Shown piece by piece: positions 1,538 through 16,420 of a stretch of DNA of 16,420 nt. Made by a program: the position numbers and the translations under genes. This DNA comes from Verrucomicrobiota bacterium (GTDB lineage: Bacteria > Verrucomicrobiota > Kiritimatiellia > RFP12 > UBA1067): assembly GCA_022704145.1 (NCBI GenBank), contig JAKJGY010000084.1, forward strand, positions 1 through 16,420, given 5' to 3'. How positions within the stretch are numbered: position 1 is the first letter of the stretch; each line of letters opens with the position of its first letter. Under the pieces are notes generated by a model, which was given only the letters and a program-made list of their open reading frames with translations, searched no databases and was not told the DNA's origin.

Positions 1538-1549
1538 GGATTCTCCTAT

Positions 1550-4500
1550 TCAGAGCTGTGAGAAGCGGTCAAGGTGGTGCAACACGCGTTGGCGGGCCGT
1601 GTGGTAAGGCTGTGGGGTGTTGGCGTAGTCCGAGCGCACGTCTTGGTTATGGTAGTCTAGCACCATCACGCGGATGATGTCGCTGGCGATATCGCGGGCG
1701 GCTTCGGCGTCACGCTGGCGCAGCAGCGCGAGGAGGTCGAAATCCTCGATGCCCTGCTGGAAGGCGGCCATGCGCAGCGAGCCTGCGAGGCCCTGCGCGG
1801 TGGGGTAGAAGAGCCAGTTGTCGCCGGGCGGGTGGCCGGGGTCAATGGAACCGTTGGGGAGCGGGCCGATGCTGCCGGCGTAGGGGTTTGCGCCGCGGTA
1901 GGCGTTGGCGCCCCAGTTCAGGAGCCCGCTGGCGCGGCAGTGGTTCGCGACCCACGGCAGGGCGCGGCAGCGCCAGAGCGGCGTGTCCAGATGGCTGTTG
2001 GGGTGGGGCGGCCGCGGGGTGCAGGCGTAGTAGATCCAGTTCGGCCGGCCGGCTGCGGCGCGCCGGCCGAGGAGGTCGGGCCAGTCGCGCGAGTAGGCGT
2101 ATCCGTACCACCAGGCGGGGACGTCCACGGTCTCGGAGTAACCGTCAAAGGCGTGGTTCAGCGCCTCCAGGACTCGCGCTTCCGGCAGGTGGTGGCGGAA
2201 GGTTGCGGCCATGGCGCGGTATTCCGGAAGAGACTCCGCCTTGGGCTCGTCCCAGAGCGACTGGCAGTAGCGGTCGGCCCAGCCGCACGCGCGGAGGCGC
2301 TCGCGCAGAGCGGTGTAGAAGGCGGGTAGGAAGCGGTTCTGGTAGTCGTCGGCCGCAAGGCCCAGCGGCTGGGGCGCGCCGTTGCAGGGGGGCGCGAGGA
2401 AAACCGCGCGCGGGTTGCGCAGGTGTTGGCCCACGAGGTGGCGGAAACCGAGGCGCTCGGCCAGCGCGGCCCAACGGTCGAAGCGCGCGAAGTCGAAGGT
2501 CCAGCGGTCGGCGTCGGCCGGGTCGCGCGCGACCGGGATCAGCGGGTGTTCGCCCTGGACGAGCGGCGTGAGGAGGGCGGTGTCGCCGAAGTCGCGCAGG
2601 GTGCGGCACGAGGCTTCCAGCAGCGTCCAGTGGGCCTCGCTCCACCAGGGAGGCGGTGGGCCGTCGGTCAGGTTCTGCGGTTCGGGCCAGAGCCAATGCA
2701 GCACGTCGAAGGTCTGCTGTTCCGGCAGCGCGGTCCGGTAGACGCGCAGCGTGAAGGGCGTCTCGGCGGCGGGGCGGCCGTCCAGGGTGGCGCGGAGCAG
2801 GCCGCTGTAGAGGCCGGGCTGTGCGTCGCGCGCGATGTCGAGACGGACCGCAGCGGCGTAGACGGAGCGGCCGTCGAGCGTCAGGGAGGTCTCGTCCGTC
2901 AGCGCCTCATAGACGTCGAAGGGCGCGAGACGCACGAGCGCGCCGGCGACGTCCTTGGGCGGCGCGGCGCTGGCGCGCGTCTTGGCGCCGCCGCCGTAGT
3001 TGGCTTCGACGTGTACGGCGCGCAGCACCTGCGGGCGGGTGCTGCCCGCGAGGCGCGTGCCTGCCTCGGTAACGGGCGGTTCAACGGCGAAGGAGACCGC
3101 GCCGGCGGCCGGCGCGGCGCGCAGGGCAAAAGGGAGCAGGAGGCGGCCTCCGCGTGGGACGTGGGAGCAGGAGGGCGCGTCGCACGGGGCGCGGTCGGTG
3201 TAGATGCGGTCGAGCGGGTCGGCGGCGGTCAGGCGCAGGACGGTACCGTCGTCGAGCGCGGTCAGGAAGGCGTCGGGCGCGAGGGCTGCGGCGGTGAGGC
3301 GGATCTCGTCGAGCGTGCCGTTCCAGACGTTATCGGCGAGGAGCGGGGCGGCGGAAGTGCCCGCGAGGTTGGCGCCCAGGGCGAAGCGCTTGTCGTAGGT
3401 CGCGGCGTCGCCCAGGTCGCCCACTCCTGAGGCCTGGCCCGCGAGGCCGCCGTCGAGATAGAGGCGCATCGTACCCGAGGGGCCGGCGGCCGGATCCCAG
3501 ACAGCGGCCACGTGGTGGGTGAGTCCGTCGTCGTAGCGGGCGGGCGAGAGGACCTGGGCGGTCTGGCCGCTGTTGGCGGTGGCGAAGAAGCGGATCCGGC
3601 CGTTGATCATGATGACGCGCCAGCCGTGGTATTGCGAGAGGGCGGAGCGGGTGCCGCCGATCACCTCGTAGACGGTCTGCGTGCCGAGGGCGCTGTTGCG
3701 GAAGAAGGCCTCGAAGGTCCAGGCCTGGCCGCGCATGTCCAGCGCGGCGTCGTAGGCGCGGAGGGCGGCGCGGCTGCGCGCGAGACTGCCGGCGTTGAGC
3801 GGAGGGCGGCTGTCGTCGAGAAAGCGAGGGGCGCGGCGTTGTGCCACCTGCGGCGTGAGCGGTGGCGCGGCGGTGGCGGCGGCCGCCAGAGTGAGAGGGT
3901 ACGTGCCGGCGGCGTCGAGCAGGAAAGGCGCGCCGGTCGGCTCGTCGAGCTGCCAGAAGGCGAGGGTTTCGGGCGCGGGAGGCGCGAGGCCGAGGCTGCG
4001 GCGCAGCAGCGTGTCGGCGAGGCGCGCGCCGAGGGCGAGCTGTCCGGCGGCGTCGAAATGCACGGCGTCGGCGTTCACGCCCAGGCCTTCGGTGAAGACC
4101 GTGAAGACGTCGGGGAGCGCGCCGGCTGCGCCGGAATCCTGGTCCGCGTCGGCCTGAGCCTGGCGCACGGCGGCTGAGCCGGGGCGCGTCTGGTAGGGCA
4201 GGACGCGGGCCAGGGCAAACGGCAGGGCGGGCGCGTCGAACTGCTCGCGGACGCGGCGGACGAAGTGCGCGAGGTTGGTGCCGTACGCGGTGCCGGCTGT
4301 GGCGCTGGTGGCGTCGGCCTCGCCCTGCACCCAGAGCATGCCGGTCAGCACCGGGGTGTGGCCCTGTGCGCGCAGGGCGGCGAGGGCGTTGGTGACGGTC
4401 GCGGCGAAGGTCGCGAATTCGGTGCCGAAGGCGGCGCTGTCGGCGGGGCTGGCGCCGGGATGCCAGCTCGTGGTTTCGTAGGAGAGCGGCTCGGTTGTGA

Positions 4501-4870
4501 GCTTGGTGCCGCCGCGGGCGTGCTTGACGAGCGCGATGGTGTCGGTGGGAAAGGCTTCGGCGAGGCGGAAGGCGGCGGCCAGTTCCGGCCCGAAGTTCGT
4601 GGGGCTGACGCCGGCCGGGCCGAGCGGGTTCCAGCGGTTGGCGGGCAGGCCCGAGCGGACGGCGGGCGAGTGGTAGAGCCAGGCGCGGCTCTGGCCGAGC
4701 AGGTTGGTCGGGGCTTGGGCGGCCGCGCCCACGCCCTCCATGTTGGACTGGCCGGCGAGCAGGAAGACGCGGCAGGTCTCGGCAGCGGCGGGGCGCGCGA
4801 AGGCGAACGCGAGTGCGGCGCCGAGCAGCGGGAGCGGGGAGAAGCGGCGCGGCTGTTCGGGAGCGGTCAT
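1550..4870 (-). CDS. Secreted multidomain protein: N-terminal sialate O-acetylesterase-like SGNH domain (SASA/DUF303 family), central LamG/concanavalin-A-like domain, C-terminal DUF4091-like putative glycoside hydrolase domain.
   Basis: ORF 1550..4888 in the track (GTG start). I prefer the ATG at 4870 (MTAPEQPRRFSPLPLLGAALAFAFARPAAA, a signal peptide). LLAGQSNMEG is the hallmark GQSNM motif of the sialic-acid-specific acetylesterase family. The mid-region LDEIRLT is LamG-like. The C-terminal WDEP...NWIYYACTP...PGDNWLFYP...GIEDFDLL pattern is typical of DUF4091. Confidence 0.7.
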   Translation of the reverse strand: MTAPEQPRRFSPLPLLGAALAFAFARPAAAETCRVFLLAGQSNMEGVGAAAQAPTNLLGQSRAWLYHSPAVRSGLPANRWNPLGPAGVSPTNFGPELAAAFRLAEAFPTDTIALVKHARGGTKLTTEPLSYETTSWHPGASPADSAAFGTEFATFAATVTNALAALRAQGHTPVLTGMLWVQGEADATSATAGTAYGTNLAHFVRRVREQFDAPALPFALARVLPYQTRPGSAAVRQAQADADQDSGAAGALPDVFTVFTEGLGVNADAVHFDAAGQLALGARLADTLLRRSLGLAPPAPETLAFWQLDEPTGAPFLLDAAGTYPLTLAAAATAAPPLTPQVAQRRAPRFLDDSRPPLNAGSLARSRAALRAYDAALDMRGQAWTFEAFFRNSALGTQTVYEVIGGTRSALSQYHGWRVIMINGRIRFFATANSGQTAQVLSPARYDDGLTHHVAAVWDPAAGPSGTMRLYLDGGLAGQASGVGDLGDAATYDKRFALGANLAGTSAAPLLADNVWNGTLDEIRLTAAALAPDAFLTALDDGTVLRLTAADPLDRIYTDRAPCDAPSCSHVPRGGRLLLPFALRAAPAAGAVSFAVEPPVTEAGTRLAGSTRPQVLRAVHVEANYGGGAKTRASAAPPKDVAGALVRLAPFDVYEALTDETSLTLDGRSVYAAAVRLDIARDAQPGLYSGLLRATLDGRPAAETPFTLRVYRTALPEQQTFDVLHWLWPEPQNLTDGPPPPWWSEAHWTLLEASCRTLRDFGDTALLTPLVQGEHPLIPVARDPADADRWTFDFARFDRWAALAERLGFRHLVGQHLRNPRAVFLAPPCNGAPQPLGLAADDYQNRFLPAFYTALRERLRACGWADRYCQSLWDEPKAESLPEYRAMAATFRHHLPEARVLEALNHAFDGYSETVDVPAWWYGYAYSRDWPDLLGRRAAAGRPNWIYYACTPRPPHPNSHLDTPLWRCRALPWVANHCRASGLLNWGANAYRGANPYAGSIGPLPNGSIDPGHPPGDNWLFYPTAQGLAGSLRMAAFQQGIEDFDLLALLRQRDAEAARDIASDIIRVMVLDYHNQDVRSDYANTPQPYHTARQRVLHHLDRFSQL

Positions 4871-4917
4871 GTCGAATGGGTGCGGCACGGGTGGCGCCCG
4901 TGCCGCGCGGTTATCGG

Positions 4918-7233
4918 TTACTGCACAAGCATCAGCGTGCCGGTGGGCGTGGCCGTGACGGTCAGGCTGGCGGCGCTGCGGCGTTCGCCGTCGGAAGCGT
5001 CCAGCCGCAGCGTGTACACGCCGCTCCGCGTGAAGGTGACGGAGGTGGCGGGGTCGGAGGGGTCGGCGAAGTCGACGTGGGCGGGGTCGCCGGCGACGAC
5101 CGACCAGCCGGTGACGAGTGCTCCGCCTGCGGGCTGGCCGTCGTCTGCGGCCGTCGCGAGCGCGGAGACGGGCTGGCCGGTCTTGACGGTCATGGCGGTT
5201 TGGGCCTCGATCACGGGCGCGTGGTTGTTGTCCGGGTCGGCGGCGAGGCGGCGGATCTCCTCTTCGTTCAGGAAGCGTGAGTAGATGCGCAGCTCGTCGA
5301 GCACGCCGTCGAAGTTGCGGATGCCGCCAGTGGGCCCGTTGTTCGCGACTACGAAAGGCGTGGTGAAATCCACCGCGCCGGGGAAGGGGGTGGTGGTGGT
5401 GGGTTGGGTGGTGTAGGGGTTGGAGATCACCTTGGCGCCGTCGAGGTACATGACCTGTCGCGAGCCGCTGGCCGCGGGGCTGCCGTCGAAGAGGACGGCC
5501 GCGTGGAACCAGCGGTTGGAGGTTATGCCCGCATCTGGCCAGGTCCAGGTGTACTGGGTGGACCCCATCCCGGTCGCGCGCGAGGAGAGGTCGAACTTAC
5601 GGGTCGAGGGATTGTAGAGGATGTAGAAGTTGGGCCCGATGTTGTAGACCCGCTGGATGACGTTGCCGCTGGCGCGCTTGGTGTAGGCCTCGTCGTGGTA
5701 GAACCAGAAGGAGAAGGTCATGTTGGTCGAGTAGGTCGGGAAGGAGGAGCCGACGCCGACAGCGTCGATGCGCGGCGCGCGAAACGCGAGGCCGAGCTTG
5801 CCCGGCTGCAGGAGGGCCGCAAGGTTGAGCGAGAGGGTGATGGCGCCGGCGCTGTCGGTGGCCTTCTTGTCGGTGGGCTCGTCGTCCATCTTCCACCAGT
5901 GGATCAGGCCGTCGGCGAGGTCGCTGGCGGGGGCGGTGACGGCGACGGTGATCTCGTCGCTGTCGCTGGCCGCGCCGTCGTCGGCGGTCAGCCGCACCAC
6001 GTAGGTGCCGGAGGCCGAGAAGCTGGCGGCGGTGGCGTTGGTGAAGGGGTTGTCGAAGAAGACGGCGCCGGGACCGCTGACCTTGGACCAGCGCAGGCGC
6101 GCCGGGCCCGGGTTACCGTCGTCGGTGACCGTGGCGGCGAGCGGCGCGGAGGCGCCGAGCACGGTGCCGGTCGCGGCCCAGGAGGCGGTCACGTTCGGGG
6201 CGGCGTTACCGGCGGGCGCGCTGGCGAGGCGCTCGACCGAGACCTCGTCGGCCACGGCGCCCAGCTCGCTGAAGGCGGTCAGGCGGAAGATGTAGGAGCC
6301 GGGCTCGGGCAGGGTGACGGCGGTTTCGGGGACGTCCGGGAATTCGATGACGGGCGCGGCGCCGTCGGGTGCGGAGACCACGCTCCAGAGGGAGGTGGCC
6401 GAGAAAGCGCGGGTAAAGAGGTTGGTGGGGGCGAGACGGCCTTGGAGGCGCGTCGTGTCGCGGTAGACGGACTGGGCGCCGCCGGCGTCGACGGCGAGCG
6501 GCATATTCTGGTAGAGCGCGAAGACCTCATGGTCCGTCAGGGCGTCATTGTAGATGCGCACCTCGTCCAAGGCTCCGTTCATCGCACGCGTGCCGCCGTT
6601 GGCCGTATTGCCGAGAAAGCCGAAGCTAGCGCCGATGTTATCGGGGGAGTAGGACTTGGGCGTCTGCACGTCGACGCCGCAGCGGATGCCGTTCAGGTAG
6701 AAGACCGGCTGCGCGACCCAGTCGGTGGCGTTGGTGTAGGTCCGCCGCACCACGAGGGAGGCGTGCTGCCACCGGTTGGTCTCGAACTTGAAGGGGATCT
6801 GATCTGGCGTGTTCCACTCGGCTCGGGTAGGCGTAATTCCGAGGCCGATACCGAAGCGCCCTGGCGTATTGAACGCGAACTGATAATACAGGGTGTTGAA
6901 CTGGACGATCTTCGGATAGAGGTTGTTGGTGTACGAGTCGGGAACGTTGAACCAAACGGAGAGCGTGAAATTCGTCAGGTGGGTGCTGGCGTTGAAGCGT
7001 GCCCAGGCGTTGGTCGTGCCGTCGAAGTAGGCGGCCTTGCCGAAGCGGCCGTCCACCATTGTGACGCCGGAGCCGAGCGTACAATGTCGGCCGGAACCGG
7101 AGGCGTCGGAAAGGGTGGTGGCGCCCGGTGCCTCGTCCATGGGCCACCAGCCGATGAGGCGCGGTGCGGCGAAGGCGTGTAAGGAGGCGCAAGTAAGTGC
7201 CAGGCAGAGGACGCGAAGGACAGGTAGGTGCAT
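4918..7233 (-). CDS. Secreted protein with two LamG (concanavalin-A-like lectin/glucanase) domains and PKD/Ig-like domains.
   Basis: 771-aa ORF. Signal peptide MHLPVLRVLCLALTCASLHAFAAP. Two LamG signatures (LDEVRIYNDALTDHEV and LDELRIYSRFLNEEEI). Ig/PKD-like segments (YIFRLTAFSELG, TYVVRLTADDGAASDSDEITV, VYTLRLDASDGERR). GGAGG RBS 6 nt before the ATG at 7233. Confidence 0.7.
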   Translation of the reverse strand: MHLPVLRVLCLALTCASLHAFAAPRLIGWWPMDEAPGATTLSDASGSGRHCTLGSGVTMVDGRFGKAAYFDGTTNAWARFNASTHLTNFTLSVWFNVPDSYTNNLYPKIVQFNTLYYQFAFNTPGRFGIGLGITPTRAEWNTPDQIPFKFETNRWQHASLVVRRTYTNATDWVAQPVFYLNGIRCGVDVQTPKSYSPDNIGASFGFLGNTANGGTRAMNGALDEVRIYNDALTDHEVFALYQNMPLAVDAGGAQSVYRDTTRLQGRLAPTNLFTRAFSATSLWSVVSAPDGAAPVIEFPDVPETAVTLPEPGSYIFRLTAFSELGAVADEVSVERLASAPAGNAAPNVTASWAATGTVLGASAPLAATVTDDGNPGPARLRWSKVSGPGAVFFDNPFTNATAASFSASGTYVVRLTADDGAASDSDEITVAVTAPASDLADGLIHWWKMDDEPTDKKATDSAGAITLSLNLAALLQPGKLGLAFRAPRIDAVGVGSSFPTYSTNMTFSFWFYHDEAYTKRASGNVIQRVYNIGPNFYILYNPSTRKFDLSSRATGMGSTQYTWTWPDAGITSNRWFHAAVLFDGSPAASGSRQVMYLDGAKVISNPYTTQPTTTTPFPGAVDFTTPFVVANNGPTGGIRNFDGVLDELRIYSRFLNEEEIRRLAADPDNNHAPVIEAQTAMTVKTGQPVSALATAADDGQPAGGALVTGWSVVAGDPAHVDFADPSDPATSVTFTRSGVYTLRLDASDGERRSAASLTVTATPTGTLMLVQ

Positions 7234-7257
7234 GTCTAACCTCCAAAGTTACAGGAC

Positions 7258-7349
7258 GAGTATGGTATATCGATAAGGAGCCGTCAATCGGTCAGGCGTC
7301 CTGTTTGACAAAAAATCAGGTAGGTTGGTATATTAAAAACAGGAGCAGG
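7258..7349. promoter_or_regulatory. Divergent promoter region between the LamG operon and the GntR gene. Sigma70-like promoter for the GntR gene: TTGACA at 7305-7310, 18-nt spacer, TATATT at 7329-7334 with an upstream TGG (extended -10). Two TGGTATAT motifs (GGTATA at 7264-7269 and 7327-7332).
   Basis: Read directly from the sequence. The AGGAGCAGG RBS precedes the ATG at 7352. Confidence 0.45.
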
Positions 7350-7351
7350 TT

Positions 7352-8068
7352 ATGGCCAATTACAGTATGGCGCGGCAGGTCGATGCGGCGGCAGGGAACA
7401 CGATGTCGCGTCGGATTTACGATGTGTTAAAGGCGGATATCGAGACGGGGCGGCTGAAGCCAGGGGCGCGGCTGGTGCGAAAGGCGGTGGCGGGACGGCT
7501 AGGTGTGAGCACGATCCCTGTAATTGAGGCGTTTTACCGGCTGGAGATTGACGGTTACGTGGAGAACCTACCGCTGGTGGGCTGCCGCGTGCGGGCGCTG
7601 ACGGTGGAGGAGCTGGATGACGACCTGATGTTGCGCGAGGCCCTGGAGTGTCAGGCTGCGCGTCTGTGCGCGGGTCGATTGAGTGTGGAGGAGGGGGAGC
7701 GGCTGATGCGCAAGGCCCGGCAGGTGGACCGGTTCATCCGTGCCGACACGCCGGACGCGACGCTGGGGAACCAGGCACATTTCGAGTTCCATCTCGAGGT
7801 GGGGCGGCTGAGCGGGCGGCGGGTGTTCGGCGAGCTGCTCAAGAAGGTCTGGTTCCAGCGCTATATGAGCCTGAACAGCCTGAAGGCCATGCGTTTTCAG
7901 TCATTGCCGGACGGGTGGCACCAGATCTTAGTGCGGCGGCTCATGAAGGGTGATCCGGACGAGGCGGAGCGTGCCATGCGGGAGCATGTGCAGTTCGGGC
8001 GGCAGGACGACCGTAACGCGCTTGAGCTGTATCTTCGGGAGCGAGTCCGGCCGGGCCTGTCGCGCTGA
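7352..8068 (+). CDS. GntR-family transcriptional regulator, FadR subfamily (N-terminal HTH plus C-terminal FCD ligand-binding domain). NanR-like candidate regulator of the adjacent sialoglycan locus.
   Basis: 238-aa ORF. RIYDVLKADIETGRLKPGARLVRKAVAGRLGVSTIPVIEAFYRLEIDGYV matches a GntR HTH. The all-helical C-terminal domain is FCD-type. The gene is divergent from the glycan operon. Confidence 0.85.
   Translation: MANYSMARQVDAAAGNTMSRRIYDVLKADIETGRLKPGARLVRKAVAGRLGVSTIPVIEAFYRLEIDGYVENLPLVGCRVRALTVEELDDDLMLREALECQAARLCAGRLSVEEGERLMRKARQVDRFIRADTPDATLGNQAHFEFHLEVGRLSGRRVFGELLKKVWFQRYMSLNSLKAMRFQSLPDGWHQILVRRLMKGDPDEAERAMREHVQFGRQDDRNALELYLRERVRPGLSR
8049..8067. repeat. 19-bp exact direct repeat, copy 1 (GGCCGGGCCTGTCGCGCTG). 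It forms the last codons of the GntR gene.
   Basis: Identical 19-mer at 8889-8907, exactly 840 bp downstream. Confidence 0.8.
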
Positions 8069-8150
8069 GTGCGTCCGGGTGTGGCGCCGTCCGCGAGGAT
8101 TAAGGTTCGATTCGCAACGGTGGTGACGCCAATGGACAGGGGCGGGAGGG

Positions 8151-8179
8151 TTGTCAGCTAGGTCTTTTGCGGTTACAAT
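8151..8179 (+). promoter_or_regulatory. Sigma70-like promoter of the tandem-wHTH regulator: TTGTCA at 8151-8156, 17-nt spacer, TACAAT at 8174-8179. The -10 overlaps the 28-bp palindrome.
   Basis: Read directly from the sequence. The predicted transcription start falls inside the palindrome, the classic layout of an autorepressor operator. Confidence 0.5.
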
Positions 8180-8205
8180 TCCCACACCTCTGGAGGTGTG
8201 GGAAT
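8178..8205. repeat. Perfect 28-bp palindrome ATTCCCACACCTC-TG-GAGGTGTGGGAAT. It overlaps the RBS (GGAGG) and the start codon of the downstream regulator. Candidate operator.
   Basis: 13-bp arms are exact reverse complements. A second copy at 8775-8802 has the central dinucleotide flipped. Confidence 0.9.
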
Positions 8206-8770
8206 GAATAGTTATCATCCGACATTATGGCGGACGTGCCGGGCGCTGGCGAACGTGAAACGGCTCGGATGTCTGAAAGCGGTTCTGGCCGAGCCGGCTC
8301 TGACGGTCGGCGAAGTGGCCGGGCGCGTCGGCATCGCGGAGAACCATGTGAGCGAGTGTCTGCGGGCGCTGCAAGCGCGCGGGTTGATACAGGCGCGCCG
8401 TCACAGCCGCTGGGTGCAGTATGTCCCTGTTCCGGACCCGTTGGTGCCTTGCGCGAGACCTCTCCTGTCGGCGCTTCGGAGGGCGATGCTGAAGGAGAAC
8501 AGACCGGCAGCCGCGCTGGTAAGCGCACTGACCGCGTTTACGCATCCTCGGCGGATCGTGATCATGAGTTGTCTGCAGAAGCATCGCTCCATTTCTGCCG
8601 AAGCGCTGGCGCGGTTAACCGGAATTAGTGTGACGGCCTTGTATCGTCATCTGGGCAAGCTGAGCGCGCGCGGTCTCCTAGCTGCCGATCAAGAAACGTG
8701 GTGCGCGGTGACGGTCAGTGACCCGTTGCTGATGACGCTATTGGGTCTTCTTGATGTGAAGGAGGAATAG
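8204..8770 (+). CDS. Single-chain transcriptional regulator with two tandem ArsR/SmtB-like winged-helix domains.
   Basis: The track ORF is 8198..8770 (GTG start). I prefer the ATG at 8204, which has a GGAGG RBS at 8192-8196. N-terminal half: LANVKRLGCLKAVLAEPALTVGEVAGRVGIAENHVSECLRALQARGLIQARRHSRWVQY. C-terminal half: HPRRIVIMSCLQKHRSISAEALARLTGISVTALYRHLGKLSARGLL. Both fit the ArsR-type HTH pattern. Confidence 0.6.
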   Translation: MNSYHPTLWRTCRALANVKRLGCLKAVLAEPALTVGEVAGRVGIAENHVSECLRALQARGLIQARRHSRWVQYVPVPDPLVPCARPLLSALRRAMLKENRPAAALVSALTAFTHPRRIVIMSCLQKHRSISAEALARLTGISVTALYRHLGKLSARGLLAADQETWCAVTVSDPLLMTLLGLLDVKEE

Positions 8771-8774
8771 TCTG

Positions 8775-8802
8775 ATTCCCACACCTCCAGAGGTGTGGGA
8801 AT
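8775..8802. repeat. Second copy of the 28-bp palindrome (ATTCCCACACCTC-CA-GAGGTGTGGGAAT), 4 bp after the regulator's stop codon. It is the exact reverse complement of copy 1.
   Basis: Read directly from the sequence. Confidence 0.9.
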
Positions 8803-8888
8803 CAGGTGCGATGGACTACGAGAAGGGTGTGTTTCGGGTTGTAACGCCAGGTTCGGAGTATCAGGCGGTATGGCCACTGGGCCGGGCC

Positions 8889-8907
8889 TGTCGCGCTGGG
8901 CGGGGCC
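8889..8907. repeat. 19-bp exact direct repeat, copy 2 (GGCCGGGCCTGTCGCGCTG). It lies 8 bp beyond the rnhC stop.
   Basis: Identical to 8049-8067. Confidence 0.8.
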
Positions 8908-8914
8908 GGGCGGC

Positions 8915-9895
8915 TTACTGAGCCTCGCTGGAGCGCGAGACGGCCTGGCCTTCAGGCCCGAGCGCGGCGCGCGAGCTGCCGCAGGTCGCGAGCACCTGGT
9001 CGGCGGTTCGGAAATGGCACTTGCAGGCCTTGAGCAGGACGGCCGGCCCGGCCTTACGGACCAGTTCAACGGCCGAGGCCTTGACCTGTTCGGATGCGCC
9101 TTTATGCGCTTGGATACCGTAGGTCTCGCCGAGGCGGCCGAGGCTGCGCAGGAAAGACTCGCGGGCGAGCACTGAGGCGGCCGCCACGGCGATGTCCGAC
9201 TCCGCCTTGTGGCGCTGCTCCAGCTTGATCGAACGGCCTTTCTTCATCAGCGCGCGCTCGATCACCTGCTTGGCGCCGAACTGATCGGCCACGGCCCGGG
9301 GGCAGCCGGGCACAGTCTCAAGCAGGTTCTCAATACACCGGGCGTGCGCCCAGGCCAGGAGGCTGTTGACGTTGCGGATCTTGGCATAGAGGCGGTTATA
9401 GGCCTCGGGGCCGATCGAGACCATCGCGAAGCGCTGGGGCCCGAGGAGCTGGCGGGTCTTGCTGCCGATGAATAATACCGCCTTGTCGCTGAGCTGCTTG
9501 CAGTCTTTGACGCCCAGATCCTGCATGGCGTGCGCGAGGTCGGGGTCGACGTATACCGCGCAGGCCACAAGCGGCCCGAAGAAGTCGCCCTTGCCGCTCT
9601 CGTCGATACCCATGTGGGGCGCGACCAGGTCGGGGTTGAGCACCTCCTCGTAGCCGACGGTCGCGTTCTGCAGCACGTTGGGCTCAAGAAAGAAGAGCAC
9701 GAAATCCTCAGCGCCCTTGCCCTGCACCAGGCACTTGCCGCTCTTATACAGGTTGACCACGCAGTCCTGGGCTTCGACGGCGACTACGGTATGGGGAACC
9801 TGCTTGGGCCGGTAGTTTCCCATCTTGAGGAGGAGCTTGAGCGCCTCCTGCTGCTCTTGATTGAGGACGAACGTGTAGGAGTTCTTCTTTTCCAT
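8915..9895 (-). CDS. rnhC: Ribonuclease HIII.
   Basis: The catalytic motif MGIDESGKGDFFGPLV (DESGKGD) lies about 100 aa from the N-terminus, after a TBP-like N-terminal domain, which is HIII rather than HII architecture. The track starts the ORF at a TTG at 9934. I prefer the ATG at 9895 (MEKKNSYTFVL). Confidence 0.8.
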   Translation of the reverse strand: MEKKNSYTFVLNQEQQEALKLLLKMGNYRPKQVPHTVVAVEAQDCVVNLYKSGKCLVQGKGAEDFVLFFLEPNVLQNATVGYEEVLNPDLVAPHMGIDESGKGDFFGPLVACAVYVDPDLAHAMQDLGVKDCKQLSDKAVLFIGSKTRQLLGPQRFAMVSIGPEAYNRLYAKIRNVNSLLAWAHARCIENLLETVPGCPRAVADQFGAKQVIERALMKKGRSIKLEQRHKAESDIAVAAASVLARESFLRSLGRLGETYGIQAHKGASEQVKASAVELVRKAGPAVLLKACKCHFRTADQVLATCGSSRAALGPEGQAVSRSSEAQ

Positions 9896-9944
9896 CGCGC
9901 GCCCATTAGACCATAAAGCGGCCTCGGGTGGCAAGCGAACGGGC

Positions 9945-11174
9945 TCAGGATCCGGCGGCGAGGGCGGCCAGAGGGAAGGGCTCGAGGCAGCGCGGCAGGA
10001 TGCCTTGCAGTGCGGCGATCAGCACACCGTAGTTGACCACCGGAACCCCGGCGGCCTGGGCCTGCCGGATGCGGTAGTGCATCTCGCGCCGGTTGAGCAT
10101 ACAGCCGCCGCAGTGGATCACCAGCGCATAACGCGCCAGGTCGCGCGGATACTTCATGCCGCTGGCGTGCTCGAACTCGAGGGCGCGGCCGGTATGCTGC
10201 CGCAGCCAGCGCGGGATCTTGACGGTGCCGATGTCGTCGGACTGGCGGTGGTGCGTGCAACCTTCGGCCACGAGGACGCGGTCGCCGTCCTTGAGCGACT
10301 CAATGGCCTTGGCGCCGCGCACGAGGGCCTCGAGGTCGCCCTTGTAGCGCGCGAAGAGGATCGAAAACGAGGTCAGCGGCACGTCGCGCGGCGTGTCGGC
10401 CGAGACTTTGGCGAAAACCTGTGAGTCGGTGACCACCAGCCGGGGCTTCCGGGCGAGGAGCGCGAGGGTCTCGCGCAGCTCGAACTCCTTGGTGACCACC
10501 GCGATGGCGTCAGCCTCGAGCACGTCGCGGATGACCTGCTGCTGCGGCAGGATCAGGCGGCCCTTGGGCGCGGCCTTGTCAATCGGCGTGACCAGCACGA
10601 CAAGATCCGAGGGACGGAGCAGATCACCGAGGAGCTGGAACTTGTCGGCCTCCTCCGGCACGGCCTGGGCCAGGGCGAGCTTGAGATCCTCGACCCCGTC
10701 GCCGGTCGCAGACGAGACAGCGTGGGCCGGCCGGCCGGACGCGGCGGCGGCCTCGGCGAGCTGAACGGCGTCGGGCGCGGCGAGGTCAGCCTTGTTGTAC
10801 ACGGCGAAAAGCGGGAGGCCTTTGGTGCGCACAAGGCCGAGGATCTCACGCTCGCAGTCGCCTAGGCCGTGCTCGGCCTCCAGCACCAGGAGGGCCACGT
10901 CGGTCTTATTCAGCACATCGCGCGCGCGCTGCACGCGAAGGGCGCCGAGCGCACCCTCGTCGTCGAGCCCCGGGGTGTCGATGATCATGACCGGCCCGAG
11001 CGGCAGCAGCTCCATCGCCTTGTAGACGGGGTCGGTGGTGGTGCCCTTGACGGCCGAGACGATCGAGACCTCCTGGCCGGTGAGGGCGTTGATGAGGCTG
11101 GACTTACCGACGTTACGTCGGCCGAAGAGGGCGAGGTGCGTGCGTTCGCCTTGGGGTGTCTGATTGAGGCTCAT
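9945..11174 (-). CDS. hydF: [FeFe]-hydrogenase H-cluster maturation GTPase HydF.
   Basis: 409 aa. G1 motif GRRNVGKSSLINAL, TTTDPVYK, DTPGLDD and NKAD GTPase motifs. C-terminal EGCTHH...(x45)...HCGGC matches the HydF CxHx(44-53)HCxxC cluster-binding signature. The protein aligns along its whole length with what I recall of Thermotoga HydF. Confidence 0.88.
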   Translation of the reverse strand: MSLNQTPQGERTHLALFGRRNVGKSSLINALTGQEVSIVSAVKGTTTDPVYKAMELLPLGPVMIIDTPGLDDEGALGALRVQRARDVLNKTDVALLVLEAEHGLGDCEREILGLVRTKGLPLFAVYNKADLAAPDAVQLAEAAAASGRPAHAVSSATGDGVEDLKLALAQAVPEEADKFQLLGDLLRPSDLVVLVTPIDKAAPKGRLILPQQQVIRDVLEADAIAVVTKEFELRETLALLARKPRLVVTDSQVFAKVSADTPRDVPLTSFSILFARYKGDLEALVRGAKAIESLKDGDRVLVAEGCTHHRQSDDIGTVKIPRWLRQHTGRALEFEHASGMKYPRDLARYALVIHCGGCMLNRREMHYRIRQAQAAGVPVVNYGVLIAALQGILPRCLEPFPLAALAAGS

Positions 11175-11431
11175 AGGGGTCTCGGGGTGTGGAAAAGTGT
11201 GTCAGCGGGTATTCAACCAGACCCGCCGCGCCTCGTCCAGTGTCTTCGTCCGTCCGTGGCGCGGGACGCCTCGGGGGGGGGAGGGCTCCCGGGGAGGGGC
11301 CGTCCAGACTGGCGGCCATCCGTCCGGCGCGGCATATTCGGCCGTGGACGGCGCCCCGTATTATGCTATCCTGAACACCGAACCGGGGACAGGGCATGCG
11401 TGACCGGCGTTCGAGAAGACGGGGGTGAGCT

Positions 11432-12145
11432 ATGTTGCGTCTGGGCGTGAACATCGACCATGTGGCGACGCTGCGCCAGGCACGGCGCACGGCGTATCCG
11501 AGCCTGGTTGAGGCGGCGGCGGCCTGCGAGCGGGCTGGCGCGCACGGGATCACGATCCACCTGCGCGAAGACCGGCGCCATATTCAGGACGCGGACGTCT
11601 ACGCGCTGCGCAAGACGCTGGCCGTGCATCTCAACTTGGAGATGGCCAACCATCCCGATATCGTGGCTGTGGCGCTTGACGTGCGGCCGGAGGAGGTCTG
11701 CCTGGTGCCGGAGCGGCGCGAGGAGCTGACGACCGAAGGCGGGCTGGACGTGGCGGGGCAGCTTGACGAGCTTGCGCCGGTGGTGGCGGCGCTGCGCGAC
11801 GCGGGGGTGTGCGTCAGCCTGTTTATCGATCCCGACCTGCGCCAGGTGGAGGCGGCGGCCGCGCTCGGCGTGCCGTACGTCGAGCTGCATACCGGCGCTT
11901 ATGCCGAGCGTGCGGGCGAGGCGCGCGAGCGGGAGCTGGCGCGGCTGGTCGCTGCGGCCGCGCGGGCGCATGAGGTGGGCCTGACGGTTAACGCGGGGCA
12001 TGGGCTGAGCCTGGACAATGTCGGGCCGGTGCTGGGGCTGCCGCATCTCGACACGCTTAACATCGGGCACAGCATTGTCTGCCACGCGGTCTTCGTGGGC
12101 CTGGAACGCGCGGTGCGCGCGATGCTGGAGAAGATGGGGATGTAG
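11432..12145 (+). CDS. pdxJ: Pyridoxine 5'-phosphate synthase.
   Basis: 237 aa. The N-terminus [18 protein letters not shown] is the canonical PdxJ signature. Full-length TIM-barrel-like pattern. Confidence 0.92.
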
Positions 12146-12147
12146 CC

Positions 12148-13254
12148 ATGTCGCTGCAGCGCGGAAACTTCGGGATCGAGTTCGACGAGCGTCCGGGCTT
12201 TCCTTACCGGCGGTTGCTCTGGACAGCCGCGCTGATCCCGCTGGCGGCGGTGGCCCTGGTGCTGACGCGCGGGTGCGCGCCGGAGGGCGAGGGCACGGCG
12301 GAGAACAATGATCCTTTGACGGCCGCCCGGTTCGACGCTCCGGAGGTGCGGGTCCACCGCGAGCGGCCGTCGTTCCTACAGCACCTGTTCCGCCGTCGCG
12401 CCGAGACGGGGGCTCCCGCCGCGGCGGCGGGCGGCGGGCAAGGGGACGCCGGCGAGGCGCGGGGCGCGGGCTGGCATGCGGCGGGTGGGGCACGGCAGAC
12501 GCCAGGGGCCAAGGCGTTGCCGGCCGAGGTGCGGCGGCTGCTGGAGCTGGCGGCGGCGCGTGAGGCCGACGGCGATCTGGCGGCGGCGCGCGAGGCGCTC
12601 CGTAAGGCGCTGGTGCGCGGGGACGCCCAGGAGCTGCGGCCGTTTGTCGAGCGCAAGCTCGGGGCGGTCAACGTGGCGTTGCTCTTCACCGACCGGCCTG
12701 CGGCGGAGAAGGCGCGGCACCGCATCGCGCCGGGCGATCTGGTGGGCAAGCTGGCGCGGCGTTACGGCTGCACGCAGGAGTATCTGCTTAAAGCGAACGG
12801 GATCGACCGTCCTGAGGCGCTGCGCGTCGGGCGGGAGGTCTGGGTGCTCACGCGGCCGGTCTTCGAGCTGACCGTGCTCAAACGGGACTCGAGTGCGGTC
12901 CTGACGCTCAACGGGCGCTTCTTCAAGCGTTATCCGATCGGGGTGGGGCGACCGGGCGAATCGCCCAACGGCGAATATGTGGTGCGCGACCGTGTGTGGC
13001 GGCCCGCCTACCGCGCGCCGGGGGTGGGCGAGGTGCCGTCAGGGCACCCCAACAACATCCTGGGGGCTGCCTGGCTCGGCCTGGCTGCGGCGGAGGGCAC
13101 ACCCGTGGCCCCCGGGTTCGGCCTGCACGGGACCGCCAACGAGTCGTCGCTCGGCCGGCCGTCCGAGGAGGGCCGCCTCCGTTTCGGCAACGCCGACATC
13201 GAGGAGCTGTTCACGCTGCTGCCGTCGGGCTCACGCGTGAACGTCGCCGACTGA
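12148..13254 (+). CDS. Membrane-anchored LysM-domain protein with a C-terminal L,D-transpeptidase (YkuD)-like domain that lacks the catalytic cysteine.
   Basis: 368 aa. ATG is 2 nt after the pdxJ stop. N-terminal hydrophobic segment LLWTAALIPLAAVALVL. LysM-like IAPGDLVGKLARRYGCTQEYLLKANGI. YkuD pattern YPIGVGRPGESPNGEY...NILGAAWLGL...GFGLHGT is present, but SEEGRLRF stands where SxGC[IV]R is expected. There is no Cys anywhere in the domain. Confidence 0.75.
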   Translation: MSLQRGNFGIEFDERPGFPYRRLLWTAALIPLAAVALVLTRGCAPEGEGTAENNDPLTAARFDAPEVRVHRERPSFLQHLFRRRAETGAPAAAAGGGQGDAGEARGAGWHAAGGARQTPGAKALPAEVRRLLELAAAREADGDLAAAREALRKALVRGDAQELRPFVERKLGAVNVALLFTDRPAAEKARHRIAPGDLVGKLARRYGCTQEYLLKANGIDRPEALRVGREVWVLTRPVFELTVLKRDSSAVLTLNGRFFKRYPIGVGRPGESPNGEYVVRDRVWRPAYRAPGVGEVPSGHPNNILGAAWLGLAAAEGTPVAPGFGLHGTANESSLGRPSEEGRLRFGNADIEELFTLLPSGSRVNVAD

Positions 13255-13708
13255 GGCGCCGGACGGCGCGCCACACGCGCGGGGTCGTCGGGTGCGGGCC
13301 CTGGGGTTGGTGTCGCGCGCGCCCTCGCAGGCTGCGCGTGGAGGGCGGCTCTAACATGGGCATGGCCCGCAACCCAAATTGGAAGACTGGAATGATGGAA
13401 TGGTGGAAGGATGGGGGTTGAGACCGAAGCAACCGAAGTGATCTTCCAACATTCCAGTATTCCACCCTTCCCAAACAACTTGTATTTTATCAGTGTTGTT
13501 CGTTCGTAAGGCAAAACATACATGCGGACGGGTTGCGTACCAGGCCTGCCCACCCCCTTCGTCCCGATGCGCGGCGCCGGACGAAATGCGCTTGTGGCCA
13601 AGCAAATCAATAATATCAGACCGTCCCAGAAATATTTCAAAGATACCATTTGACAACAGACATAAACAAATCGTAACATAGGGGCGTTTTAAGGAGGAGG
13701 TGTGTCTC
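13255..13708. other. AT-rich intergenic island (about 45% GC, against about 70% background) containing imperfect GGAATG-type repeats and a hairpin.
   Basis: GC counted by hand on four 60-nt lines: 37%, 60%, 55%, 33%. Partial inverted repeats at 13386-13409 and 13446-13461. Confidence 0.6.
13650..13700 (+). promoter_or_regulatory. Sigma70-like promoter (TTGACA at 13650-13655, 18-nt spacer, TAACAT at 13674-13679) and a consensus AGGAGGAGG RBS at 13692-13700.
   Basis: Read directly from the sequence. This is the strongest SD in the window. Confidence 0.4.
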
Positions 13709-14056
13709 ATGCCGACGGACAAAGAGCATTTGAGCGTCGAGGAGGTGGCGGACGAGCTGGGCGTGACGTACCAGTTGATCTACCGTCTGGTGCGGTCGGG
13801 CGAGCTGCCCGCGGCGCGTCTGGGCAAGCTATACCGGGTGTCGCGGGCCGATCTGAACGCCTATCTGGAGCGCAGCAAGCGCGATGTCGTGGGCGGCGGC
13901 GGGACGTGCGCGGCGTGCGGTACGTTCTATCGCAGCAAGGGCGCGCTGCAGCAGGCCTGCGCCGCCTGTGGCGCGCCGGTCTGCTTTGACTGCTGGATGC
14001 GCCTGGGCGTACGGACGTGCAAGGAACATGGCGCGGCCGAAACCGCGGCCCGCTGA
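13709..14056 (+). CDS. Small DNA-binding protein: N-terminal HTH_17 (excisionase/MerR-type) domain fused to a C-terminal Cys-rich zinc ribbon.
   Basis: The track ORF is 13700..14056 (GTG start). I prefer the ATG at 13709. LSVEEVADELGVTYQLIYRLVRSGELPAARLGKLYRVSRADLNAYL is a typical excisionase-family HTH. The C-terminus carries CAAC-x14-CAAC-x4-CFDC-x9-CKEH. Confidence 0.65.
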   Translation: MPTDKEHLSVEEVADELGVTYQLIYRLVRSGELPAARLGKLYRVSRADLNAYLERSKRDVVGGGGTCAACGTFYRSKGALQQACAACGAPVCFDCWMRLGVRTCKEHGAAETAAR

Positions 14057-14151
14057 GCGTGCGCGTGCGGCGTGCGACGGAATGGATTTTTCGTGCATGA
14101 ACGTATGGATCTGTTATCCTGTGGCAACGTAAGAAACAAACGAGGTGGACG

Positions 14152-15810
14152 ATGGGCATATTCAGTGACCGGTGTGACGCGTTGATCGACCCCAACACGG
14201 GGCGGGCCTTGGGTGGCGAGGCGCTGGCGCAGGCGAAACTGGAGCCGAAGTGGCCGCGTTGCAACAACTCCGTGCGCAAGGCGGCGCGGTTCTGCAACAA
14301 GTGCGGCTCGGGCGCCCCGGGCGGCTGGTGGCGCTGCCCCTCGTGCAAGAAGTGGATCGGCAACGAGGCGCAGTTCTGCTCGCACTGCAACACCCCGCTC
14401 TTCCCGGAGGACCGCTCGGTCATGGCCGGCGGTGTCTGGCGCAAGGATGTCGGCCTGTTCGCGCAGCGCTTTGAGATCGGCGACGTCAAGCGGCTGCTCC
14501 AGAGCGACCTTCTGGTGCAGGAGGGCACGGTGGCGGTGGTCTTGGACGGCGGCCACGTGCACGGTATCCTGGGCAGCGGACGTCACAACCCGGACAGCCT
14601 GGCGCGTGCGATCAACTGGTTCGGCGACCCGCCGCCGCGCTCGGTGGTGATGGTGGATGTCGGCGATGTGGCGCTGCCGTTGCGCGTCGAGGGGCTGCGT
14701 ACGGCCGAGCATCATCCGATCGCGTTCTACGGCGAGGTGATCCTGCGTTTCGGAAACGACAAGGCCGCGGCCTTGGCCTTGCTGGAGAACGCGCTTAAGG
14801 ACGCCCGCCACCTGGCGTATAAGGAAATCTCAGAGAGCCTGCAGGGGGTGGTGCGGGCGGCGGTCGACGCGCTGTGCGTGACCTCCACGCTCGACGACCT
14901 GGTGCGCGACCCGGAGCGGCGGACGCGCCTGCAGGAGACGATGACGCGCATGATCGGCGCGGATATCGGCCGACGCGGGTTGGCGGTGGTGCGGGTCTCC
15001 TCGGCCGAGTTCACCGGCGACGAGTACGAGGCGTACGCCGAGCGCCTCGGCGACGTGGACATCAAGCGCCGCGAGCAGGAATACGCCGACACGGTCCGTA
15101 AGCTGAAAAAGAAGGAGGAGATGGAGGCGTACAAGGACGCGGACGAGCTGCGCGCCTTCAAGGCCCTCATCGACAGCGAGTACCGCGTCTCTCAGGCCAC
15201 GCGCGACCGCGAGTGGGAGCTGCTCAAGCGCGAGTGGCAGCATGACGACATCCGACATCAGCAGCTTCTGGAGGTCGAGCGCACGGCGCATGCGATCGGT
15301 GTGCAGGTCCAGAAGGACGACTACGGCCGCGACAAGGACATCAAGGACGCGGGCGCGGCGGCGGAGGCGCGCGACCAGACGTTCGGGCAGGAGCGCAAGG
15401 AGGCGGAGTGGGCGCTCGACATGCGGTCCCGTAAGGATCAGATCGAGCTGGACCGCAAGGCGGCCGAGGCCAAGCGGCGCGAAGGCATGACCACCGAGCA
15501 GATGCTGGCGGACGTGGACGACCCGTCGCTGCGCAAGGAGCTGGTCGAGCTGATGAAGGCGGAGCGCAACCGCACCATGACGCCGGAGCAGATGCTGGCC
15601 GAGGCGGCGCTGCACAACCCGGCGGCGGCCGAGGCGCTCGCGCGCATGGCCGACCGTACGCGGCAGAACGCCGAGCAGGTGCTGGCCGAGATGAAGAAGC
15701 TCTATGCCGACGCGGCCGAGCGCCAGGACCGGAACCTCAAGACCATGCTCGAGCCGGCCGTGGAGGCCGCCAAGCGACAGGCGGCCCAGCCGCAGACGAT
15801 CGTGCATTAA
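14152..15810 (+). CDS. Flotillin-like protein: N-terminal double zinc ribbon, central Band-7/SPFH domain, C-terminal long charged coiled-coil with MT[TP]EQMLA repeats. No transmembrane segment.
   Basis: 552 aa. Zinc ribbon: FCNKCG...RCPSC...FCSHC. SPFH-like block: LLVQEGTVAVVLDGGHVHGILGSGRH...VDVGDVALPLRVEGLRTAEHHPIAFYGEVILRF...LAVVRVSSAEFTGDEYEAYAERL. The C-terminus is E/R/K/A-rich and contains GMTTEQMLADV and TMTPEQMLAEAA. GAGGTGG RBS. Confidence 0.65.
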   Translation: MGIFSDRCDALIDPNTGRALGGEALAQAKLEPKWPRCNNSVRKAARFCNKCGSGAPGGWWRCPSCKKWIGNEAQFCSHCNTPLFPEDRSVMAGGVWRKDVGLFAQRFEIGDVKRLLQSDLLVQEGTVAVVLDGGHVHGILGSGRHNPDSLARAINWFGDPPPRSVVMVDVGDVALPLRVEGLRTAEHHPIAFYGEVILRFGNDKAAALALLENALKDARHLAYKEISESLQGVVRAAVDALCVTSTLDDLVRDPERRTRLQETMTRMIGADIGRRGLAVVRVSSAEFTGDEYEAYAERLGDVDIKRREQEYADTVRKLKKKEEMEAYKDADELRAFKALIDSEYRVSQATRDREWELLKREWQHDDIRHQQLLEVERTAHAIGVQVQKDDYGRDKDIKDAGAAAEARDQTFGQERKEAEWALDMRSRKDQIELDRKAAEAKRREGMTTEQMLADVDDPSLRKELVELMKAERNRTMTPEQMLAEAALHNPAAAEALARMADRTRQNAEQVLAEMKKLYADAAERQDRNLKTMLEPAVEAAKRQAAQPQTIVH

Positions 15811-15861
15811 AGGCGCCCGTTGATCCAGCGTGCGGGAGCTGCCCGCTTCAGGGGGGACGAC

Positions 15862-16420
15862 CATGGCTCGTGTGAAATGTCAGGCGTGCGGCAAGAGCAC
15901 GGAGGAGGGCTTGTTTTGCGAGAAGTGCGGGGCGGAGCTTGCGGGGGGCTACGCGCCCGCCGCCGCGTCCGCCCCTGCGTTCGCGCAGCCGGAGCCGGCG
16001 CGGGACCCCGTGTTCATCCGGACACCCCCCGAGGTGCGCGCGCCGCGCGTGGTCGTGCTGGAGCCGGCGGTCGAGGCGCCGCAAGCCTGTGAGCCCGCGA
16101 CGCCTGCAAGGGCCGGACGGTCGGCGGCGGAGCCGGTGTCGGCCGCCTGCGAGCTGGGGGATTGCCCGTGGCTGCTGGTCGAGAACGATAAGGCCGGCTT
16201 CTTTGTGGCGGGCACGCCCGGCCTGCTGCGGCTGCGGCTGACGGCGCAGGAGGAGGGCCTGCTCAACCTGCGGGTCGGGCTGAGTCTGGCGTACGCGACG
16301 TGCGAGCCCGTGCCGCCGTTCGAGCTGTATCGCCCGAAGGCGCTCCAGCAGACGGTGACCAGCCTGAGCGTGCCGCCGCTCAAGCCCGGGGCGTATGTGG
16401 CCGAGCTTACGGTCTCCTTT
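15862..16420 (+). CDS. Protein with an N-terminal zinc ribbon (CQACG-x10-CEKCG), a Pro/Ala-rich linker and a beta-rich domain. Partial; it continues beyond the window end.
   Basis: My own translation from the ATG at 15862 gives 186 codons with no stop (absent from the track because no stop falls in the window): MARVKCQACGKSTEEGLFCEKCGAELAGGYAPAAASAPAFAQPEPA...CELGDCPWLLVENDKAGFFVAGTPGLLRLRLTAQEEG. It follows the SPFH gene by 51 nt on the same strand. Confidence 0.5.

Follow-up and report, generated by a model that had tools for sequence, protein, structure and literature searches.

The closest described relatives of the system treated here are the ArsR/SmtB repressors, whose operators are 12-2-12 inverted repeats, present once or twice at the transcription start or close to it; in the ziaR/ziaA example, the inverted repeat lies between the −10 element and the start codon (PMC8790569, AzuR paper). 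For SqrR, a dimer is reported to occupy a two-fold symmetric operator of 22 bp at 1:1 (bioRxiv 10.64898/2026.05.15.721447), and CapS, a STAS–winged helix-turn-helix (wHTH) protein of defence operons, is autoregulated through palindromic sites up- and downstream of capS (PMC13373217). Here we describe a 188-aa tandem ArsR/SmtB-type regulator whose gene is enclosed by two copies of one 28-bp palindrome, PAL1 and PAL2. It is encoded within a 16,420-nt stretch (hereafter the window) of a Verrucomicrobiota bacterium (GCA_022704145.1, contig JAKJGY010000084.1, positions 1–16,420). Comparison with homologous loci makes it probable that the product is a fused ArsR autorepressor for which PAL1 is the main operator and PAL2 an auxiliary one, with a possible loop between them.

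PAL1 (8178–8205) is a perfect 13-2-13 palindrome, ATTCCCACACCTC-TG-GAGGTGTGGGAAT, and PAL2 (8775–8802), ATTCCCACACCTC-CA-GAGGTGTGGGAAT, is its exact reverse complement (100% complementary); neither is assigned a strand. We propose the two as primary (O1) and auxiliary (O2) operator. The arms of PAL2 can be extended to 16 bp (CTG...CAG, 8772–8805), and the two palindromes lie 597 bp apart, centre to centre. A strong sigma-70-like promoter (8151–8179, plus strand) precedes the gene, with −35 TTGTCA (8151–8156), a 17-nt spacer and −10 TACAAT (8174–8179), matching the consensus at 10 of 12 positions in a consensus scan (shuffles would give 0.1 sites). PAL1 occupies the interval from the −10 element to the ATG: it shares the last two bases of the former, and its right arm carries the Shine–Dalgarno sequence GGAGG (8192–8196) and the first two bases of the latter. 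ArsR operators classically lie in this position. Transcription is predicted to start near 8185–8187, within the PAL1 left arm.

The regulator gene (8204–8770, plus strand) starts at ATG 8204, giving 188 aa, rather than at the GTG 8198 of the open reading frame (ORF) list, because homologue N termini and a 99%-identical 188-aa protein (P0001) agree on the former. Its stop codon, TAG, occupies 8768–8770, and PAL2 begins 4 nt later. Sequence reading and repeat searches thus both bear out an initial annotation of this DNA, made from the letters alone, which had placed two identical 28-bp palindromes around the gene, the first overlapping the −10, ribosome-binding site and start codon and the second 4 bp past the stop. 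With up to two mismatches allowed, the window contains four 13-mer half-sites against a shuffle mean of 0.32 (0 of 200 shuffles reach four). A 99%-identical strain (L067) differs by eight substitutions in ~970 bp, none of which falls within either palindrome.

The protein is built from two winged-helix units. Pfam finds winged-helix matches in both halves (HTH_20, 39.3 against a cutoff of 27; HTH_5, 29.7 against a cutoff of 22), and the NCBIfam ArsR/SmtB model NF033788 matches over two stretches (72.9 bits, cutoff 55). Searching the PDB with a profile built from 113 homologues matches the N-terminal half (~residues 10–92) to SmtB, CzrA, CadC and NmtR, and the C-terminal half (~residues 95–183) to YgaV, NolR, HlyU and BigR. 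In the AlphaFold2 model (predicted local distance difference test score (pLDDT) 93.9; predicted template-modelling score (pTM) 0.88), the order α1-α2-α3-α4(recognition)-β1-β2-α5 is present twice, forming unit 1 (~residues 8–97) and unit 2 (~residues 102–182). A Foldseek search of the PDB returns half-chain matches only (template-modelling (TM) score 0.6–0.74, normalised to target), which per half include SmtB, CzrA, YgaV, NolR, HlyU, BigR and SqrR, and no solved structure spanning the full tandem chain. Pfam, NCBIfam, the profile search and AlphaFold2 all agree with the tandem wHTH first read from the sequence: the gene product is a covalently fused single-chain pseudo-dimer of two ArsR/SmtB units. 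The halves share 26% identity, and their recognition helices differ (ENHVSECLRALQ vs SVTALYRHLGKL). In sequence models, fold and operator form it belongs with ArsR/SmtB proteins; the family's homodimer of ~100–120-aa subunits is not found here.

Sensing is harder to place. By inspection at the AlphaFold2 helix positions, the α3 segments (residues 35–42, VGEVAGRV; 132–139, AEALARLT) contain no cysteine, and the α5 segments (residues 84–97 and 174–182) contain no His/Asp/Glu ligand set; the canonical ArsR metal sites (α3N, α5) are absent, and so is the α2/α5 cysteine pair known from persulfide sensors. Two cysteines in α1/α2 of unit 1, C12 and C23, are nearly invariant among homologues, and C23 aligns near C38 of HlyU, but the position is not the same. 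Casting the pair as a sensor would be speculative. PADLOC gave generic wHTH matches only, to the HTH part of Csa3.

The regulator belongs to a sizeable family, with ~400 relatives of 185–200 aa in metagenomes. We fetched 66 homologue loci from metagenome-assembled genomes (MAGs) of Kiritimatiellia, Lentisphaerae, Verrucomicrobiota and Planctomycetota, and scanned 65 of them together with the window (66 loci, 460 kb). The core motif CACAC(C/T)T-N4-A(G/A)GTGTG adjoins the regulator gene in most loci and in all four phyla; loci at first scored negative carry an imperfect palindrome directly before the ATG. A position weight matrix (PWM) built from the homologue palindromes finds 152 sites where ~1 is expected, none inside the regulator ORF and all but two within ~1.1 kb of the gene. 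A site is centred no more than 60 bp upstream of the start in 47 of the 66 loci, and no more than 250 bp upstream in 58; 28 loci have one within 120 bp past the stop, and 26 have sites both before the gene and after it. PAL1 and PAL2 each score 33.0 bits on this matrix, and the PAL1 centre, 13 bp before the start, falls at the modal position (−12/−13). Homologue loci repeat the window's layout base for base: TTGACA, 17 nt, TAnnnT abutting the palindrome, ATG. The initial annotation had suggested a check of whether gene and palindromes travel together; their association recurs across the 66 loci, and a gene enclosed by two sites is seen again in dozens of related bacteria.

Genomes often hold 2–6 paralogues, mutually only 45–60% identical, and the palindromes track them individually. 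The O1 and 3′ copies of the same locus differ by 2.1 mismatches per 26 positions, against 9.6 between different loci; copies belonging to paralogues in one genome differ by 8.3. A paralogue thus has a palindrome variant of its own, maintained in two copies. The position between −10 and ATG in homologues of four phyla, this locus-specific co-variation and the ArsR family membership together lend comparative support to the earlier proposal that the pseudo-dimeric repressor uses the flanking palindrome as its operator, for autoregulation, from which we infer binding. PAL1 is very probably the cognate operator of the enclosed repressor, and gene plus palindromes most likely form a conserved self-control module.

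No partner gene is conserved family-wide. Neighbours of the homologues are mixed, and include an FGGY kinase, an ABC permease, an ADP-ribosylglycohydrolase, a glycogen synthase, a xylose-isomerase-like protein and bPH_5, as well as a TOTE primase-helicase, a polyphosphate kinase, GH141 and FeoAB. At the TOTE locus (L029, 3385–7522), sites stand on both sides of the regulator and again 57 bp past the next gene, which encodes a 953-aa TOTE conflict-system protein with primase, helicase and DUF559 nuclease domains. This layout suggests that some paralogues may control defence genes.

The position of the second site can be examined across the same loci. A 3′ site is equally frequent with a convergent next gene (14 of 30 loci) and with a co-directional one (14 of 30). 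Being independent of the orientation of the next gene, the 3′ site therefore belongs to the regulator gene and not to a downstream promoter. The opposite reading, in which PAL2 serves the next gene's promoter as operator and the regulator controls a downstream target as CapS does, has in its favour several homologue loci with a 3′ site just upstream of a co-directional gene (L023, L027, L053 and L003) and the precedent of the CapS repressor gene with sites on both sides (PMC13373217). In the window, however, the next gene is a convergent RNase HIII-like gene (8915–9934, minus strand), and a consensus scan found no promoter-like site adjoining PAL2 on either strand, which contradicts this reading here. 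Given also the equal frequencies above, we judge it extremely unlikely.

Where the 3′ site is missing, a second one is often placed 113–134 bp upstream of O1. Among the 44 loci with an O1, 21 have only a 3′ site, 11 only an upstream site, one has both and 11 have neither, so that a two-operator design is found in 33 of 44. The near-exclusivity of 3′ and upstream sites gives a Fisher p of 0.0015, an optimistic value in that related loci are not independent. It would be the pattern expected from alternative placements of one auxiliary operator, and we consider it likely that one and the same protein binds PAL1 and PAL2. The inverted arrangement noted in the initial annotation is true of the window, but it is no conserved rule: O1 and 3′ sites are inverted in seven loci and direct in two, with 15 ties, and the closest long homologue (L104) carries both copies in direct orientation. 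Upstream auxiliary sites are inverted relative to O1 in four loci and direct in six.

An alternative reading is at the level of RNA, in which the palindromes act as hairpins rather than protein sites and the identity of the copies is a by-product. PAL2 would then be a terminator without a U tract or a 3′-end stabiliser, like repetitive extragenic palindromic (REP) elements, and PAL1 a 5′ hairpin whose left arm, with CACCTC (resembling the 16S 3′ end), sequesters the Shine–Dalgarno sequence. The calculated hairpins are very stable (−24 kcal/mol for full PAL1 and ~−28 kcal/mol for PAL2, on either strand), the right arm of PAL1 is the ribosome-binding site, and PAL2 begins 4 nt past its stop codon, the only exact copy found elsewhere 11 nt past that of another gene, in the same orientation (see below). 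Asymmetric arm positions at O1 are also more often G–U compatible in the sense (20) than in the antisense direction (6), in a set where related loci are not independent. Several observations oppose this. The core sequence CACAC...GTGTG is itself kept across four phyla, beyond what pairing ability would demand, and 46 of 72 arm asymmetries at O1 would break RNA pairing. Once the RNA begins at the predicted transcription start, within the left arm, folding of PAL1 into a hairpin is no longer favoured; the upstream auxiliary copies are not part of the predicted transcript at all. As an intrinsic terminator, PAL2 offers a hairpin with no U (T) tract; a terminator scan of 7900–9100 found 0 sites, and the window region has no match in Rfam. 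Nor would hairpins explain why the sites are tightly linked to one protein family and match within each locus. Hairpins are thus an unlikely basis for the arrangement as a whole. PAL2 may still have a possible secondary role as a 3′-end hairpin, and termination there without a U tract is possible.

The initial annotation had also called for a search for further copies of the 28-mer. Across 185,579 species genomes we found no exact copy, in a set of representatives that does not include the window's own genome. A metagenome scan returned one only, unlinked to the regulator, at 666–693 of a 1.5-kb contig (Ga0172375_10200163; L084) that carries no regulator gene. This copy is separated by 11 nt from the stop codon of the preceding gene, for a SpoU-type RNA methyltransferase, and by 20 nt from the ATG of the following one, for a secreted protein. 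No tandem-ArsR gene is found within 8 kb at the orthologous SpoU loci of relatives, one of which has a weak site in the same place. We read the L084 copy as a candidate target site, which would fit a small regulon, or else as a general 3′-end element. The metagenome scan, made with the 22-bp core, gave 20 loci in all, 19 of which were rejected as unrelated 'ACCCCCACACCTCnnGAGGTGTGGGGGT' palindromes with no regulator. These 19 (L068–L083 and L085–L087) form a palindrome family of their own, (T/A)ACCCCCACACCTC-NN-GAGGTGTGGGGGT(A/T), on contigs of 39–66% GC.

Were the 28-mer a dispersed, REP-like genome repeat that lies near the regulator incidentally, copies such as that in L084 would be expected, and at some homologue loci palindrome arrays do occur inside 169-bp tandem repeats. 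Such dispersal is at odds with the distribution seen around the homologues, where only 2 of 152 sites lie farther than ~1.1 kb from the gene, and with the window, where the half-site search and the PWM scan found no palindrome copy beyond PAL1 and PAL2. It also sits poorly with each paralogue carrying its own palindrome variant and with the single exact copy in metagenomes. We therefore regard a REP-like repeat as very unlikely.

The arrays themselves have a regular structure. In three Kiritimatiellia/Verrucomicrobia MAGs (L016, at 3240–3775 and ~4690–4960; L017; L021; and, with a 170-bp period, L064), the homologue gene is embedded in 169-bp tandem repeats that flank it on both sides in the same orientation, each unit holding one strong palindrome, GCCCACACCTTGAAAGGTGTGGGC. 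A search of Rfam with the 169-bp repeat of L016 gave only a chance-level match. Shorter arrays occur in L003 (48-bp period), L044 (81-bp period) and L052.

Another suggestion of the initial annotation was that the palindromes mark the ends of a small mobile or cassette unit. Palindrome, gene and palindrome would then constitute a current or recent mobile or invertible cassette with the palindromes as terminal inverted repeats, comparable to REP elements and their REP-associated tyrosine transposase (RAYT) genes. A single gene between inverted identical repeats has this appearance, as do the 2–6 paralogues per genome and the excess of inverted over direct pairs among asymmetric O1 and 3′ copies (seven against two, or three direct if L104 is included). 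In addition, an exact 19-bp direct repeat, GGCCGGGCCTGTCGCGCTG (8049–8067 and 8880–8898), brackets the whole unit, its right copy 77 bp beyond PAL2, and synteny with relatives breaks exactly at the left copy. The repeat is confined to the window's locus, where it is also present in the second strain (L067).

The proteins and their surroundings tell against mobility. Domain, profile and Foldseek searches detected only winged-helix DNA-binding domains in the regulator, whose fold is that of a plain DNA-binding protein; nuclease, recombinase and HUH/Y1 motifs are lacking. Identical proteins recur in one genomic context in different samples (P0077 on 14 contigs, P0043 on 10), and orthologue groups, such as those next to the FGGY kinase and bPH_5, retain their neighbours. 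At 45–60% identity, none of the paralogues is recent. No relatives of the regulator were found in viral contigs, the promoter sits outside the palindrome-bracketed segment, and there is no recombinase gene nearby. The hallmarks of an insertion sequence (a transposase or recombinase, target-site duplications, identical copies in different contexts) are not found. We dropped an invertible switch as a candidate, there being no recombinase and the second strain having the same orientation, and rejected flanking direct repeats as a family feature, since 20 other two-palindrome loci show none above chance. The cassette suggestion thus finds no support in context, flanks or viral matches, and we give it hardly any credence.

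The left copy of the 19-bp repeat encodes the last six, non-conserved codons of a GntR/FCD gene. Orthologues of that gene (73–76% identical) keep its divergent PKD/Laminin_G neighbour and are then followed by TRAP (DctQMP) genes, and their C-terminal tails differ from the repeat-encoded tail. An empty site for a cassette was sought among them and not found, the TRAP genes that follow pointing to rearrangement rather than to an insertion polymorphism. Because GntR synteny breaks at the left repeat and the tails differ, the regulator unit lies at a rearrangement junction in this lineage.

We return to the autorepressor with two operators, which accounts best for these observations. The 188-aa protein would repress its own transcription: bound at PAL1, an operator that also includes the ribosome-binding site, it would obstruct RNA polymerase. 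PAL2 would serve as a second, auxiliary operator for the same protein. Proteins at PAL1 and PAL2 may further associate, enclosing the whole gene in a repression loop, a step towards which we are somewhat more sceptical than inclined. At the 3′ end, the PAL2-bound protein could also be a roadblock and the PAL2 hairpin a stop signal, and the regulator would thereby be insulated from the convergent RNase HIII-like gene. We infer palindrome binding and its stoichiometry, looping or a roadblock, repression rather than activation, and the existence of an inducer.

Several points weigh against this model. The recognition helices differ although the operator is perfectly symmetric, and one chain per palindrome is for that reason not self-evident. 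From centre to centre, the conserved half-site cores are spaced by ~13 bp, much as in NolR-type sites but more widely than in classic SmtB-type ones. A looping operator would not need to hug the stop codon as PAL2 does, which a role in RNA or termination at the 3′ end would explain, and the same 28-mer also follows the stop of the unrelated SpoU-type methyltransferase gene. O1 stands alone in 11 of the 44 loci, and the Fisher test treats loci as unrelated by ancestry. With the canonical ArsR sensing sites missing, regulation by a ligand would be conjecture.

A more specific version extends the model to the whole family, and we put it forward with considerable reserve. It envisages fused single-chain ArsR proteins confined to Kiritimatiellia, Lentisphaerae, Verrucomicrobiota and Planctomycetota, in which each paralogue has a 'private' palindrome enclosing its own gene. 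Protein bound at start and stop would bridge the two sites, combining a loop with a 3′ roadblock, and the paralogues would form mutually insulated repressor–operator pairs, each a pseudo-dimer that sets two different helices on a symmetric site.

The remainder of the window has features of its own. Upstream, 1550–8068 is an apparent sialic-acid/glycan utilisation neighbourhood, with genes for a 1112-aa protein (SASA esterase, Laminin_G_3, GH123) and a 771-aa Laminin_G_3/PKD protein upstream of the NanR-like GntR/FCD gene and on the strand opposite to it; at the GntR locus of relatives, a BNR sialidase and a TRAP transporter are found. Downstream, the RNase HIII-like gene (RNase_HII and DUF3378 domains) is adjoined by a gene for a HydF-type [FeFe]-hydrogenase maturation GTPase (9945–11174, minus strand). 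HydE and HydG were not seen among the scanned ORFs of the window. The longest inverted repeat of the window, 38 nt and 84% complementary, lies within the HydF coding region (10658–10695 and 10835–10872, 139 nt apart). Farther on, 14152–15810 encodes a 552-aa protein with an N-terminal double zinc ribbon and an SPFH/Band 7 domain, and the 3′ part of this gene contains three imperfect direct repeats spaced 87–90 bp (15486, 15576 and 15663).

If the autorepressor model is correct, the operator, the promoter layout and the logic of the two sites become known for a whole regulator family in poorly studied, uncultured polysaccharide-degrading bacteria, and its 18-bp core motif could predict regulons where almost no transcription-factor sites are known. 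A fused dimer with two different DNA-reading heads on a symmetric site would pose a structural question of specificity and stoichiometry. It would be unusual for autoregulation to be tightened or insulated by an operator right after the stop codon, whatever follows it, and paralogue-specific protein–palindrome pairs could be used as orthogonal parts in synthetic biology. The general understanding of ArsR-type repression would be unchanged.

Of the known systems that resemble this locus, the REPtron, a RAYT gene with its REP elements, is a gene flanked by inverted hairpin-forming palindromes. The likeness extends to one gene between inverted palindromes and one dispersed copy at the 3′ end of another gene; unlike the REPtron, the regulator has no HUH/Y1 transposase domain, and its palindromes are low in copy number near homologues, with no sign of dispersal in the 460 kb scanned. 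CapS shares a repressor gene, autoregulated there and proposed to be so here, with palindromes on both sides, whereas the site downstream of capS is the following operon's promoter; PAL2 is promoterless and faces a convergent gene, and the domain architectures differ. Repressors that loop through auxiliary operators include lambda CI (OR–OL around cI-rexAB), LacI (O1/O2/O3), GalR and DeoR. Our locus has in common with them a promoter operator and an auxiliary operator 100–700 bp away, the lambda repressor gene likewise lying between operators. It differs in protein family and in having as its auxiliary site a single palindrome directly past the stop codon, and looping is only proposed for it.

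The strongest comparison is with the ArsR/SmtB autorepressors (SmtB/smtA, ZiaR/ziaA, CzrA and AzuR, and the non-metal NolR and SqrR). They have the same fold, here present twice per chain, the same placement of an inverted repeat (here 13-2-13) between −10 and start, and one or two operators per locus. Set against these are the single fused 188-aa chain with non-identical recognition helices, the lack, by inspection, of canonical α3N/α5 metal ligands, a second operator past the stop codon that leaves the gene enclosed, and the expansion within genomes to several paralogues, whose operator variants differ. A literature search returned no paper on tandem, fused or double ArsR proteins, which is absence of evidence only. 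On present comparison, the module would work like a classical ArsR/SmtB autorepressor, departing from it in the fusion, the sensor sites, the 3′ operator and the paralogue-specific pairs.

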